A stretch of 64,000 nucleotides of DNA. It comes from Dehalococcoidia bacterium (GTDB lineage: Bacteria; Chloroflexota; Dehalococcoidia; Bin125). The notes below the pieces were generated by a model. It made no database searches and was not told the DNA's origin. It worked only from the letters and a program-made list of their open reading frames with translations. The DNA is taken from assembly GCA_963663235.2 (NCBI GenBank), contig CAXXNO010000004.1:640001-704000 (forward strand), read 5' to 3'. The position numbers were made by a program, and so were the translations under genes. Of this stretch, positions 15,069 to 25,466 are shown piece by piece (position 1 is the stretch's first letter; each line of letters opens with the position of its first letter).

Positions 15069-15158
15069 TGGCGGAGAGGGTGGGATTCGAACCCACGAGG
15101 GGCTTGCGCCCCCACACGCTTTCCAGGCGTGCCTGTTCAGCCACTCCAGCACCTCTCC
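15069..15158 (-). tRNA. tRNA-Ser(GGA)
   Basis: GGAGAGG acceptor stem, anticodon arm CACGC-CTGGAAA-GCGTG, long variable arm, GGTTCGAATCC and encoded CCA. Confidence 0.97.
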
Positions 15159-15186
15159 GTGGACGAACTGCCCGGCGCAGATACAG

Positions 15187-15277
15187 TGGCGGAGAGGGTG
15201 GGATTCGAACCCACGAGGGCCTTGTGAGCCCTACCGATTTTCGAGATCGGCACCTTCAACCACTCGGACACCTCTCC
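15187..15277 (-). tRNA. tRNA-Ser(CGA)
   Basis: Anticodon arm CCGAT-CTCGAAA-ATCGG, long variable arm, GGTTCGAATCC and encoded CCA. Confidence 0.97.
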
Positions 15278-21295: not shown

Positions 21296-22594
21296 CTACT
21301 TCACCCCCACCGCCGACTCCACCTGCGGGATCGCCTGGAACCCGGTCGGCAGCGCCAGCACCGTCGCCGGCGCGCCGGTTTGCCGCTCCATCTCCGACGC
21401 CAGCTCCGCCACCGTCGCCGACACGTCCTCGCTCTTCCGCAAGTGCGCCGCCTTCGTCGTCGCCTCGTCCAGCGTCGAGTAGAGGTATACCTCCGCCTTC
21501 AACTGCGCCATCGCCTGGCACTGGATCCCCCACTGGTCGATGCGGTGGAAGTCCGGCTCCAGCAGCAGGGCAATCAGCGCCTCGGGACTCTCCCGCGATG
21601 CCAGGAACTCGGCGTAGTCTTCGTTCCCGACCCCTTCCCGGCACTCCGACGCCAGCACGATCGCCCCGCCCCGCCGCACCGCCCGCGCCGCCGCCGCCAT
21701 CCCCTTGATCGACTGGTACACGTTCAGGTCGGCCGGGTAGCCCCCGTTCGTCGTCACCACGATGTCGTACTCGTGCGGCACCGGCCGCAGCGCCGCCCGG
21801 TCCACCTCGGCCATCGCCGCGTCGTGCGCCGCCGCCAGCTCGCCGCAGAAGAAGCCCGTCACCCGACGGTCGGCGCTCAGCGTCACGTTGCACAGGAACG
21901 TCGGCTCCGACGCCAGCGCCACCGACCGCATCTCCTCGAAGATCGGGTTCCCTGCCCCCACGCAGAACGTCGCCTTGGGGTCCAGCAGGTTCGCCGCCGT
22001 GTGGTTGCGCATGATGTTGTGCGCCGCTGCGATGCCGGGCAGCACCCCTTTGCCGCCGCCGCTGTAGCCGGCGAAGATGTGCGGCTCCACGAACCCCGTC
22101 ACGATGCGCACGCTGGCCCGCATGTAGTGCGAGTTCAGGTAGATGCCGCCCCGGCGCTCTCCCGGGTAGCGCTGCAGGAACGTGAGCGAATCGGGATCCT
22201 GTGAGTCGTGCACCGCGACTCGGTAGTCCCGCACGATCTCCGGCCCCAGCAATCGCTCCAACTCGGGCCGCGACATCTGCCGGTGCAGCCCCGTCCCCAC
22301 GACGAGCGTGATCCGCTCCCGCGGCACGCCTCGACCCTCCACCACCCGCAGCAGCTCCGGCGCCGTCAGGCGGTTCGGCGCCGGCCGGGTGAGGTCGCTG
22401 AACACGATCGCGACGTGGTCGTCCGGCCCCACCAACTCGGCCAGCGGCGGCGACCCGATCGGCCCCGCCAGCGCCTCCCGCAGCGCCGCCGGCGGGGCCG
22501 CCAGCGGCGCCACGTCCTTCGGCATGATGACGTCCGTCTGCGCCGGCAGATCGACGTCCAGCCCGTTCTCGCCGTAGGACAGGTGCACCTTCAT
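21296..22594 (-). CDS. larA: LarA-family nickel-pincer racemase/epimerase
   Basis: SDLTRP, GTGLHR, VHD, PHIFAGYSGGGKGVLPG, RNH, GGYPADLNVYQSIKG and ECREG motifs. Confidence 0.9.
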   Translation of the reverse strand: MKVHLSYGENGLDVDLPAQTDVIMPKDVAPLAAPPAALREALAGPIGSPPLAELVGPDDHVAIVFSDLTRPAPNRLTAPELLRVVEGRGVPRERITLVVGTGLHRQMSRPELERLLGPEIVRDYRVAVHDSQDPDSLTFLQRYPGERRGGIYLNSHYMRASVRIVTGFVEPHIFAGYSGGGKGVLPGIAAAHNIMRNHTAANLLDPKATFCVGAGNPIFEEMRSVALASEPTFLCNVTLSADRRVTGFFCGELAAAHDAAMAEVDRAALRPVPHEYDIVVTTNGGYPADLNVYQSIKGMAAAARAVRRGGAIVLASECREGVGNEDYAEFLASRESPEALIALLLEPDFHRIDQWGIQCQAMAQLKAEVYLYSTLDEATTKAAHLRKSEDVSATVAELASEMERQTGAPATVLALPTGFQAIPQVESAVGVK

Positions 22595-22678: not shown

Positions 22679-22843
22679 ATGGCCGGCGAACCGTTCGACG
22701 ACCAAACCCGCAGCGAGCGCCGCGCCGACAAGCGACGCAACAAGCGCCGCGCCCTCCAGATGCACGGCGCTTCCCTCCGCCGCATCTACCCCAACGCCGT
22801 CCTCAAGCGCCTCCGCCGAGCCAAGCGCCCACGCTCCCGCTAG
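22679..22843 (+). CDS. Small basic 54-aa hypothetical protein, probably leaderless
   Basis: MAGEPFDDQTRSERRADKRRNKRRALQMHGASLRRIYPNAVLKRLRRAKRPRSR; TACACT 7 nt before ATG. Confidence 0.55.
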   Translation: MAGEPFDDQTRSERRADKRRNKRRALQMHGASLRRIYPNAVLKRLRRAKRPRSR

Positions 22844-23313
22844 TGCGTCCTAATCTCCGCCGACGACGTGATCCGGATCGCCTCCTTTACGCTCTCGTGC
22901 GCCGGGCACCCCCGCGCATGCACCTCCACCGCCCGCTGCGCCGCCTCCCGCGTCCCCGCGCTGATGTCGATGTGGTAGCTCACGTGGATCGCGGTGATCC
23001 GGATCGGCGCGCCCTTGCCCGCCGGCCCCTCGATCGTCCCCTCCACGTCGGCCGTGTAGGTGTCCGGGTCGAACTCAACGTCGCGTACTCGCAGCGCACG
23101 GGCGAGCGTCCCGTACATTCACCCCGCCACCGCCGCGACGATGTGGTCCAGCGTCGCCGCTACCGGCGGACCCTCGGGCGCACCGTAGTACTCGCGTAGC
23201 GCGCCCTGCACCCCGTACGGCACCGGCTCCGGCACGTCGCCCAGGTAGGCGTTGCGCACGCCGTCCTTGAGCACCAGCCGCGACTTGGACATGTAGGTGA
23301 ACGTGTCCGCCAT
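22840..23313 (-). CDS. OsmC/Ohr-fold peroxiredoxin-like protein with in-frame UGA (probable selenocysteine)
   Basis: ORFs 23119-23313 and 22840-23118 are in one frame, separated only by TGA at 23119-23121 in LDHIVAAVAG-U-MYGTL; second Cys in GCPAHESV; joined length 157 aa. Confidence 0.85.
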
Positions 23314-23315
23314 GA

Positions 23316-24380
23316 TCATGCTCCTCTCTCGCCCTGCTGAGCCCGCGCGTAGCTGGGGTCCTGCTGGCTCCGCTGCCCCCGTGTCCACTCCGGCGGGATG
23401 GGATACTCCCCGCTGATCGGGTCGACCCGGCTCCAGTCGTAGACGATCACCCGGTCCCCGATCCGCCACGCCTCCCCGTCCCGACGCTCCATCCGGTCCA
23501 GGTGCCGGCAGCCCACCACCTGCTCCGTCCGCCCGCTCGTCCGCGACGGCATCCGGTGATAGGCCACGCAGTACGCCTCGCTGTAGCCCACGTCGCCCTG
23601 CACTTCCACCAGCACCTGCCCGATGTAGTGCATCGTGCCCAGCATCGTGGGCAGTCCCCCGAACGCGTACTCGATGAAGCCGTCGCGGTCGCCTTGGTAC
23701 ATGCCGTGGTCGTCGGTCGCGTTGGCGTGGTAGCAGGACCGCGCCAGCTCTCTGTCCAGCCGGTCGACGGCGCGACAGTAGCGCTGCGCCACCTCAGCAA
23801 TCGCTTGCTTGTCCAGCGCCTCCTGCAGGCGGCCCTCCAGCGTGTCGGGTGGCGACCAGTCGGCGCGAAAGGCGGGCCGCTTGTACACGGCGTCCTGCCG
23901 GTCTCGCCGTCCCGTCACGTACTTCCCGTGGAAGTCCCACTGCCGCCCAACCGGCGCGATGGTGCTCCACTCCCACACCGTCCGCCGCTGCGCGATCTTC
24001 CACTCCCCCGCTCGGCGCTCCAGGCGGTCGATCCACCGCACCCCGGCCACGCCATCCTCGTCCTCGCCACTCTCGGTTACCGCCCGCTGGTACGCGGTCA
24101 CCTGCGCCTCGCTCTGCGCCCTGTCGCCGTCCAGGTCGATCAGCACGTTGGTGATGGTGTGCATGCCCAGGCTGGTCGGGGCCAGCGCCGCTTGCAGCCA
24201 GGGCACGAACCGCTCGACCGGCCCGTTGAACGCGCCGTGCTCCAGCTTCGCGCCGCCGTGGAAGCAGGACCGCGCCAGCTCCCAGTCGAAGCGATCCACG
24301 CCGCGGGCGAAGCGCGCGAGCACGTCGGTGATCGCTTGCTTGTCCAGCAGCGCCCGCGCCTGCCGCTCGTCGATCGGCAC
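23316..24380 (-). CDS. Protein with two SnoaL-like/NTF2 domains (paralog 2)
   Basis: Two copies of L.DKQAI..V..R(F/Y).R.VDR.D.EL.RSC(F/Y)H...H.(I)...R..DR.ERR. Confidence 0.88.
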   Translation of the reverse strand: MPIDERQARALLDKQAITDVLARFARGVDRFDWELARSCFHGGAKLEHGAFNGPVERFVPWLQAALAPTSLGMHTITNVLIDLDGDRAQSEAQVTAYQRAVTESGEDEDGVAGVRWIDRLERRAGEWKIAQRRTVWEWSTIAPVGRQWDFHGKYVTGRRDRQDAVYKRPAFRADWSPPDTLEGRLQEALDKQAIAEVAQRYCRAVDRLDRELARSCYHANATDDHGMYQGDRDGFIEYAFGGLPTMLGTMHYIGQVLVEVQGDVGYSEAYCVAYHRMPSRTSGRTEQVVGCRHLDRMERRDGEAWRIGDRVIVYDWSRVDPISGEYPIPPEWTRGQRSQQDPSYARAQQGERGA

Positions 24381-24404: not shown

Positions 24405-25466
24405 CTAACGGTCCGCGCCGGACCGTGCGTAGGCCAGGTCGTCCTTGTTGCGCTGTCCCCGCATCCACTCGGGGGACAGTTCCAGTTCCTGGCTGATCGG
24501 GTCGATCCGGCTCCACTCGTACGCCACCATCCGGTCCCCGAGCTTCCACTCCGCGCCGTCGCGACGCTCGAAGCGGTCCACGTACCGGCAGGCCACCAAC
24601 TGCTCGGTCTTTCCCGACTTCCGCGACGGCATCCGGTGGTAGGCCACGCAGTATGCCTCGCTGTAGGCTACGTCGCCCTGCACGTCCACCAACCGATTGC
24701 CGATGTAGTGCATGGTGCCCAACATCGTCGTCAGGCCGTCCCCGGCGTGCTGCACGAAGCCGTCTCGGTCGCCCTGGTAGGTGCCGTGGTCGTCGGTGGC
24801 GTCTGGGTGGTAGCAGGAGCGCACCAGCTCCATGTCGATCCGGTCCACGCCGCGGCAGTAACGCTGGACCACCTCGGCGATGGCTTTTTTGTCCAGCAGC
24901 TCCTGCAGCCGTCCCTCGATCGTGGTCGGGGGCGCCCAGTCCGATGCGAAGCGCGGCCGATCGTATACCGGGTCCTGCTTGTCCCGACGCCCCTTCCGGT
25001 AGTTCTCGTTGAAGTTCCACTGCCGCCCCACCGGCGTCGCGGTGCTCCACTCCCACACCACCCGCCGATGCCCGATCCGCCACGTCCCCTCCCGCCGCTC
25101 GAACCGGTCGATCCACCGCGCCCCCACCACAAAGTCCCGGTCCGGCTCCCCTTCGCCCTTGGGCGGCAGCCGGTGATAGGCGGTGACGTACGTCTCGCTC
25201 TGCGCCCTGTCGCCGTCCAGGTCGATCAGCGGGTTCGTGATGAGGTGCTGCGAGAGCGTCATCTTCCCTAGCTCCTCGCGCACCCAGGGGATGAACGCCT
25301 CGATCGGGCCGGTGAACACGCCGTGCTCGTCCATCGCCCCCTCGTGGAAGCAGGACCGCACCAGGTCCCAGTCGAAGCGATCGATCCCGCGCGCGTAGCG
25401 CGCGACCACCTCGTAGATCGCCTGCTTGTCCAGCAGCGCCTGCGCCCGCTCGGCGTCGATGCTCAT
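24405..25466 (-). CDS. Protein with two SnoaL-like/NTF2 domains (paralog 1)
   Basis: Same double-domain architecture as 23316-24380; GGAGG RBS. Confidence 0.88.
   Translation of the reverse strand: MSIDAERAQALLDKQAIYEVVARYARGIDRFDWDLVRSCFHEGAMDEHGVFTGPIEAFIPWVREELGKMTLSQHLITNPLIDLDGDRAQSETYVTAYHRLPPKGEGEPDRDFVVGARWIDRFERREGTWRIGHRRVVWEWSTATPVGRQWNFNENYRKGRRDKQDPVYDRPRFASDWAPPTTIEGRLQELLDKKAIAEVVQRYCRGVDRIDMELVRSCYHPDATDDHGTYQGDRDGFVQHAGDGLTTMLGTMHYIGNRLVDVQGDVAYSEAYCVAYHRMPSRKSGKTEQLVACRYVDRFERRDGAEWKLGDRMVAYEWSRIDPISQELELSPEWMRGQRNKDDLAYARSGADR

Follow-up and report, generated by a model that had tools for sequence, protein, structure and literature searches.

The Ohr and OsmC proteins are dimeric organic hydroperoxide reductases that use two cysteines and depend on thiols or lipoyl groups (PMC5384416). 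In their catalytic cycle, a peroxidatic Cys is oxidized to a sulfenic acid, which then reacts with a resolving Cys, located about 60 residues further on, to give a disulfide; the latter is reduced by lipoyl groups, and an Arg and a Glu assist in both the Ohr and the OsmC subfamilies (PMC5384416). The superfamily also has predicted selenium-containing members. A selenoprotein family named "OsmC-like protein" was predicted as early as the 2005 Sargasso Sea study of Zhang, Fomenko and Gladyshev, assigned to COG1765 and with the motif UxxT, in which U is selenocysteine (Sec) (PMC1088965), and the family was described again in the GOS study of 2008 (pfam02566, UxxT; PMC2398784). Here, we analyze a gene of a Dehalococcoidia bacterium (Chloroflexota) that lies in a 64,000-nucleotide (nt) stretch of DNA, hereafter called the window (assembly GCA_963663235.2, contig CAXXNO010000004.1, positions 640,001 to 704,000). 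The gene carries an in-frame UGA at the position of the first active-site cysteine of the OsmC fold. With a probability of roughly 0.9, it is an intact gene for a 157-residue redox enzyme of the OsmC/Ohr fold, in which the UGA would be decoded as Sec by SelA, SelB, SelD and tRNA-Sec, helped by a hairpin downstream of the codon.

An earlier note on the window had announced a hidden selenoprotein at this place. It was right in that this is a real selenoprotein gene, while the novelty was overstated, since OsmC-like selenoproteins have been in print since 2005 (PMC1088965). The principle is therefore not new; the gene is of a known kind and belongs to an uncurated and mis-annotated subfamily. Judging from the homologous sequences, its internal UGA almost certainly encodes selenocysteine at the reactive site.

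The coding sequence occupies 22840..23313 on the minus strand, as a single frame of 157 codons whose sole interruption is the TGA at 23121-23119. The two open reading frames involved, 23119..23469 and 22840..23118, are in the same frame and are joined by this one TGA (read as "tca" at 23119-23121 on the plus strand), which bears out the layout and the total length of 157 residues given in the earlier note. With TGA translated as U, the product reads ...TLDHIVAAVAG-U-MYGTLARAL...HARGCPAHESVKEAIRITSSAEIRTH, contains the motif HARGCPAHESV and ends at the stop codon TAG at 22842-22840. The 157 residues are counted from the ATG at 23313, which is likely the start codon on sequence grounds: it is preceded by a ribosome-binding site (GAGAGGAG, 23321..23328, minus strand) of which the GGAG (23324-23321) lies 7 nt 5' of the ATG, and the orthologues begin at the equivalent Met, each behind a GGAG-like site. 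An alternative start at ATG 23319 was rejected; it overlaps the TGA stop of the upstream gene and leaves no spacing for a ribosome-binding site. The UGA is codon 65 (23119..23121, minus strand), and its assignment to the position of the first active-site Cys is based on the homologue columns, on the Cys forms and on contigs of other studies. A second, nearly invariant Cys column follows 71 residues after Sec65. It is occupied by Cys136 (TGC at 22906..22908, minus strand), which belongs to the GCPAHESV motif and sits at the resolving position; like that of the Sec, this column is conserved.

The in-frame TGA is found in related organisms far beyond chance, because it occupies the same alignment column in 30 of 30, 80 of 80 and 16 of 16 loci. 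The first of these sets comes from the relatives: the gene is present in 32 of 61 related genomes, with a single TGA in every match, and in all 30 loci the U stands within the motif ATLDHIVAAV[AG]GUM[YF]G. The second set comes from a scan of species genomes (one genome per species), which gave 139 relatives; the best 80 of the 139 all have TGA at the column (64 + 16). By name, these relatives belong to Chloroflexota/Dehalococcoidia, Rokuibacteriota/Methylomirabilota, Acidobacteria, Actinomycetota, Gemmatimonadales, Clostridia/Bacillota and Ktedonobacteraceae. The 30-locus and 80-locus sets share one collection and overlap, so that 94 sequences reduce to 75 distinct ones. The third set is more remote. 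When 401 genomes were sampled evenly across the phylum, 19 contained a match at E <= 1e-10, and TGA is present in all 19, down to 33% identity; of these, 16 were aligned, and each has a single U at the same column within the motif A[AG]GU[LM]xGT. Taken over the 126 locus rows (30 + 80 + 16, the sets overlapping), the codon in every one is the TGA read as Sec rather than a codon for Cys, in at least six phyla.

Cysteine is the counterpart of the Sec in protein databases. A total of 148 database proteins were examined, of which 94 span the site; 54 were dropped as halves that end or begin at the TGA. Among the 94 site-spanning representatives, 76 have Cys at the Sec column. The column otherwise shows S (5), G (4), W (2), A (2), D (2), V (1), R (1) or a gap (1), and frameshifted gene calls are evident in a few of these rows. 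A column of TGA or Cys is what the earlier note had expected of the homologues. It had also named reads with TGC or TGG at the codon as a refutation, and on this point independent assemblies can be consulted. Codon 23119-23121 is covered by contigs of four other studies, which show TGA only. The TGA is thus no assembly error, because these contigs have the same letters. They differ from the window only at 22741, 22798, 22865, 22937 and 23221, apart from a 2-nt insertion behind 23298 in one run. This insertion (GA, run X17) falls within codons 5-6 of the selenoprotein gene and points to a strain in which the N-terminus or start differs, or else to a contig error. No RNA run is among the 24 runs listed.

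The organism possesses the means to insert selenocysteine. Its genome (2.75 Mb in 14 contigs, 91.9% complete) encodes SelA (445.9 bits), SelB (359.1 bits) and SelD (357.8 bits), each above the curated cut-off, and a tRNA-Sec (70.9 bits, above cut-off) for which ARAGORN gives the anticodon tca. All components named in the earlier note, selA, selB, selD and the tRNA, are therefore at hand. The selD gene, which is situated outside the window at about 103806 on contig C4, has an in-frame TGA itself (CGG-U-GSK), followed by two hairpins. Therefore, the Sec system of this organism depends on a selenoprotein. Elsewhere in the genome TGA is a normal stop: it closes 1491 of 2959 stop-to-stop frames of at least 300 codons, being the commonest terminator in this crude count, which includes non-genes, and it terminates the gene immediately upstream as well as 8 of the 30 orthologues. 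Within the window, two adjacent tRNA-like matches at 15072-15277 (C4:655072-655277, minus strand) score 41-44 bits on the tRNA-Sec model, for which the threshold is 47; they are probably long-arm tRNAs such as those for Ser or Leu.

The assignment to the OsmC fold is supported at the level of both sequence and predicted structure. The Pfam OsmC domain PF02566 spans the TGA (45.1 bits for a cut-off of 27.5, E 1.4e-11, residues 59-153 of P0001). An AlphaFold model built on 28 homologues has a predicted local distance difference test (pLDDT) value of 88.8 and a predicted template modeling (pTM) score of 0.83, and shows the canonical order of strands and helices. It consists of a hairpin (4-24), a long helix (54-76) with Sec65 in its middle, strands 87-97 and 105-117, helices 119-135 and 137-142 with Cys136 at their junction, and a strand 147-156. 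A Foldseek comparison of the model with the PDB gave 55 matches at E <= 0.001, and among the matches listed all are OsmC/Ohr or OsmC-like proteins; the best is 2onf (E 1.5e-6), followed by 1lql, E. coli OsmC 1qwi and several Ohr entries. In a profile search of the PDB sequences, with weak E-values (0.03-0.8 overall, and 0.03-0.3 for the alignments that place U and Cys136), U pairs with the first of the conserved cysteines in 2opl, 2pn2 and E. coli OsmC 1qwi (Cys59 in the printed chain numbering), and Cys136 with the C-P cysteine of 2pn2 and 1qwi, which agrees with the claim of the earlier note that the UGA is at the catalytic Cys position. A single-sequence search of the PDB had returned only a chance match to an enoyl-CoA hydratase (E 0.24), and a profile search was needed instead. 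When the Cys-form homologue P0003 was compared with the Protein Atlas, generic OsmC clusters were the only outcome (scores 0.90-0.91).

On the basis of the chemistry of Ohr and OsmC, it is possible to propose how the enzyme may work. Sec65, in the long helix, would take the position of the peroxidatic Cys, and Cys136 of the "GCP" motif that of the resolving one. The selenolate would attack the hydroperoxide and be converted into a selenenic acid, which could then react with Cys136 to form a selenenylsulfide. The latter might be reduced by a dithiol, for example, a lipoylated protein or a thioredoxin-type reductant. Candidate assisting residues are Arg20 and Asp56. In the orthologue alignment Arg20 is nearly invariant, and its place in the N-terminal hairpin of the model may correspond to that of the catalytic Arg of Ohr; Asp56 is invariant and precedes the Sec by 9 residues. 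By analogy, a peroxidase function is somewhat favored, the alternative being another role in thiol redox metabolism.

A bacterial selenocysteine insertion sequence (SECIS) usually has its apical loop about 16-37 nt after the UGA and a G in this loop, and these are the criteria used by bSECISearch. The candidate SECIS region of the window (23083..23116, minus strand) can be drawn as three alternative hairpins on that strand: the minimum-free-energy hairpin of the window fold at 23116-23096, the GCUCGC/GCGAGU hairpin at 23107-23087 and, by reading the sequence, a degenerate copy of the orthologue hairpin at 23099-23083 (5 of 6 pairs possible, loop UGCGA). Both structures put forward in the earlier note, UGUACGGG/CCCGUGCG and GCUCGC/GCGAGU, can indeed be formed on paper (-11.7 and -7.5 kcal/mol in the window), but it is the orthologues on which the case for a SECIS rests; support for a hairpin is poor from the window alone and better across orthologues. 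Averaged over the 75 distinct orthologues, the energy of 36-nt windows has its minimum (-15 to -16.6 kcal/mol) at +3..+18 after the UGA and amounts to about -5 to -14 kcal/mol elsewhere in the gene. In 22 of these 75 sequences, no other such window is more stable than the one after the UGA, whose median rank is 2, the sequences being related and not independent.

The shape of the hairpin differs between clades. In most Dehalococcoidia orthologues, the stem at +17..+37 has 9 bp and is capped by a GUU or GAU loop, with a further stem, CGGC/GUCG, below it, and the orthologues of Rokuibacteriota, Bacillota and a remote Chloroflexota clade have a 6-bp stem at +22..+38 with the loop UGGCA, UGGAG or UGUCA. 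In 28 diverse sequences, 98.8% of the cells of this 6-bp helix are paired, and when the partners are slid by 1-3 columns the value falls to 15-68%. One pair swaps, being G-C in 14 and C-G in 12 of the 28 sequences, and this swap couples a synonymous third-position change to an Ala/Gly replacement. The covariation score at +22..+38 was reached by none of 500 shuffles, a result that concerns one pair only and sequences picked after the hairpin had been seen.

This manner of selection is one of several points that speak against the interpretation as a whole. The 56 nt that follow the UGA in the window fold at -16.8 kcal/mol, a value equaled or surpassed by 106 of 200 dinucleotide shuffles (z +0.20), and the hairpin of the orthologues at +22..+38 is degenerate there. 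With the 30 closest relatives, RNAalifold gave a weak consensus of -5.46 kcal/mol without any compensatory pair; a column-wise consensus of this kind fails because the hairpin shifts its register between clades. Rfam yielded no SECIS match, a search of 22950-23200 at E <= 10 producing just three chance-level matches to microRNA or snoRNA families. On the protein side, the profile matches to characterized OsmC and Ohr structures are as weak as stated above, and in the NCBIfam search the window protein does not reach the curated cut-offs for OsmC, Ohr or OsmC_like_Se. It scores 14.1 bits on the OsmC model TIGR03562 (cut-off 85.8), no Ohr model appears at E <= 1, and on NF041052, the "OsmC-related (seleno)protein" model, it obtains 27.9 bits for a cut-off of 95, and 18.6 bits in a six-frame search. 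Its Cys-form relatives are likewise below every curated model. Furthermore, the invariant Asp56 may stand in place of the catalytic Glu of Ohr and OsmC. A third, "Ohr-like" group within the superfamily is described as having neither the Arg nor the Glu of this pair and as poorly characterized (PMC5384416); peroxidase activity is therefore something that we infer. Finally, the comparison of 109 and 64 loci revealed no conserved operon partner that would hint at a substrate or reductant.

The most probable of the rival explanations accepts a genuine selenoprotein and doubts the hydroperoxide reductase. According to it, the protein would be a member of the third branch ("Ohr-like"/YhfA/COG1765-type), in which the Sec/Cys pair serves disulfide or persulfide reduction or a redox relay. 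We regard this as possible, though the less likely of the two roles. It is in keeping with the group that does without the catalytic Arg and Glu (PMC5384416) and with an invariant residue 9 positions before the Sec that is Asp rather than Glu, the correspondence to the catalytic Glu being itself presumed. The best profile match of solved structure, 2opl (E 0.035), is an uncharacterized hypothetical protein, and the closest curated model describes an "OsmC-related (seleno)protein" domain, neither OsmC nor Ohr. Moreover, the OsmC-like protein FTN_1133 is, by the title of its report, one without thiol-dependent peroxidase activity (PMC4069020). A peroxidase, on the other hand, would account for the conservation of both positions of the two-cysteine mechanism, some 70 residues apart, and for the near invariance of an Arg in the N-terminal hairpin, where the model suggests a match to the catalytic Arg of Ohr. 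The occurrence of Sec at the peroxidatic position also follows the pattern of other Sec peroxidases (PMC13188914).

A very different possibility is that of a split gene, in which translation terminates at the UGA and is reinitiated at the AUG next to it (UGAAUG), so that polypeptides of 64 and 92 residues assemble without residue 65. An ATG does follow the TGA directly, in the window and in 30 of 30 close orthologues, and gene callers do predict the 92-residue piece, with a Pfam OsmC match (P0002 and many others). The residue lost in such an arrangement, however, would be exactly the one that is Cys in 76 of 94 homologues, and the break would cut through the long helix 54-76 of the model. The adjacent AUG is not universal either: in remote Sec-form homologues the UGA is followed by CUC, CUG, CUA or UUG (Leu), and several of these have no possible start. 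In the Cys-form homologues, too, the residue that follows the Cys is Met or Leu, and the Met is therefore a feature of the protein. As the organism, in addition, keeps a complete Sec system, we consider a split gene very unlikely.

It could also be imagined that the UGA is read as Trp, Gly or Cys, through genome-wide reassignment or near-cognate read-through. Two family entries (P0004 and P0007) show W at the column, as would be printed by a gene caller that equates TGA with Trp. Against this stand the use of TGA as the commonest terminator of long frames, as the end of the neighboring gene and of 8 of the 30 orthologues, the joint presence of tRNA-Sec, SelA, SelB and a SelD that contains Sec itself, and the fact that the homologues carry Cys, the usual counterpart of Sec, and not Trp or Gly; a standard amino acid at this position is accordingly most improbable. 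Least tenable of all, and already contradicted, is a pseudogene, nonsense mutation or assembly error at 23119-23121, since, although a lone internal stop in a sequence taken by itself would fit a recent nonsense mutation or a base-call error, the same codon recurs at the same column in the 30, 80 and 16 loci, the protein is conserved on both sides of it down to 33% identity, and the contigs of four other studies are identical at the codon.

The surroundings of the selenoprotein gene vary among the organisms that have it. Directly upstream on the same minus strand lies the gene for a two-domain SnoaL_4 protein (23316..24380), whose TGA stop (23318-23316) ends 2 nt before the ATG of the selenoprotein. 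It is one of two tandem paralogues, at 23316-24380 and 24405-25466 on the minus strand, that encode proteins of 353-354 residues with two SnoaL_4 (NTF2-like) domains each. At 245 nt downstream of the selenoprotein gene, again on the minus strand, there is a LarA-type gene (21296-22594) with the N- and C-terminal domains of lactate racemase. This SnoaL_4/LarA arrangement is kept in 4 of 109 homologous loci, all from the nearest genus. Elsewhere, the commonest neighbor on the same strand, in 36 of 64 loci, is of the RibD_C/dihydrofolate-reductase type, as far as reading of the sequence by eye can tell.

In the public gene calls, the gene is filed as two fragments: pieces of 90-92 residues named "OsmC family protein" and unnamed N-terminal pieces. 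As a consequence, selenoproteins are undercounted in Chloroflexota and several other phyla. The coexistence of a large Sec clade with many Cys-form homologues also offers a natural test of the contribution of selenium, as the two forms would share the peroxidase chemistry of OsmC/Ohr and be directly comparable.

Among the known systems, E. coli OsmC (1qwi/1nye) and Ohr (1n2f, 1zb9 and 6eb4) have the same fold as the model of the window protein (Foldseek E 1e-5 to 5e-4, template modeling score 0.45-0.6). In OsmC/Ohr and in the window protein, a redox residue in the long helix is followed, about 60-70 positions later, by a second one in a C-P motif. The first residue is Cys in OsmC/Ohr and Sec in the window protein, for which activity and dimer formation are predicted. 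The acidic residue differs as well, with an invariant Asp 9 residues before the Sec in the window family and a conserved Glu in Ohr/OsmC, if the two are indeed equivalent. The third branch of the superfamily (COG1765/YhfA-like; 2opl, 2onf, 2pn2 and 1ml8) provides the best profile and fold matches among solved structures. The motif at its first Cys is G-C-L-T-T in 2opl and G-C/U-[LM]-x-G-T in the window family; with E 0.035-0.27 the matches are marginal, the second Cys is absent from 2opl, and none of the four entries is reported as a selenoprotein in the material consulted. A more distant parallel is found in the Sec peroxiredoxin (TxxU; PMC13188914). As in the window protein, Sec replaces a peroxidatic Cys and Cys-form homologues exist; its thioredoxin fold is, however, unrelated to the OsmC fold, and the likeness is one of analogy only.

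The closest comparison is with the published OsmC-like selenoproteins themselves. In the tables of a 2026 review, OsmC has one entry (PF02566, UxxT), the terms "OsmC" and "PF02566" occurring once each, while other families are split into numbered forms (PMC13188914). We take the NF041052 model to be the curated form of this published family, because the members found here carry the UxxT motif. In the phylum sample, such members exceed the cut-off in 22 of 401 genomes, with 106-174 bits, and 23 of 24 rows have one in-frame TGA (examples are L133-L138 in genomes G196, G259, G161, G108, G401 and G120). The six-frame search of the genome of the window gave no NF041052 member over the cut-off. This genome does contain two more OsmC-like genes, at C12:335784-336122 and C9:63221-63598, which have no internal stops and score 54-55 bits on NF041052; therefore, it holds at least three OsmC-superfamily paralogues.

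The window protein and the NF041052 family have in common the OsmC fold, the Pfam domain PF02566, a predicted role in thiol redox metabolism and one UGA-encoded Sec in the first active-site helix, at the position of the first active-site cysteine. Nevertheless, the two differ in sequence. Their BLASTP alignment (E 0.31) is confined to 18 residues at the Sec helix, where the two U residues coincide. The motifs are G-U-M-Y-G-T and GCPAHES in the window protein and GF-U-L-L-T-Q and GC[FY]TMQ in NF041052 members, so that the U-L-L-T of the latter conforms to UxxT, whereas in the U-M-Y-G-T of the former the Thr is at +4. Four of the genomes sampled in the phylum (G132, G256, G264 and G429) carry a gene of each family, at distinct loci. 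The odds seem about even that there exists an uncatalogued second form of OsmC-fold selenoprotein, G-U-[ML]-x-G-T ... G-C-P, distinct from the UxxT family and able to coexist with it in one genome, with Sec throughout and a SECIS hairpin that a synonymous change coupled to an amino-acid replacement keeps in the fixed register +22..+38. If so, Chloroflexota of soil, sponge and groundwater, together with their neighbors, would have a widespread Sec-dependent redox enzyme that current annotation and the 2026 catalogue both overlook. From the alignments, the window protein is placed outside the catalogued family, as a sister family within the OsmC superfamily that has Sec at the homologous position.

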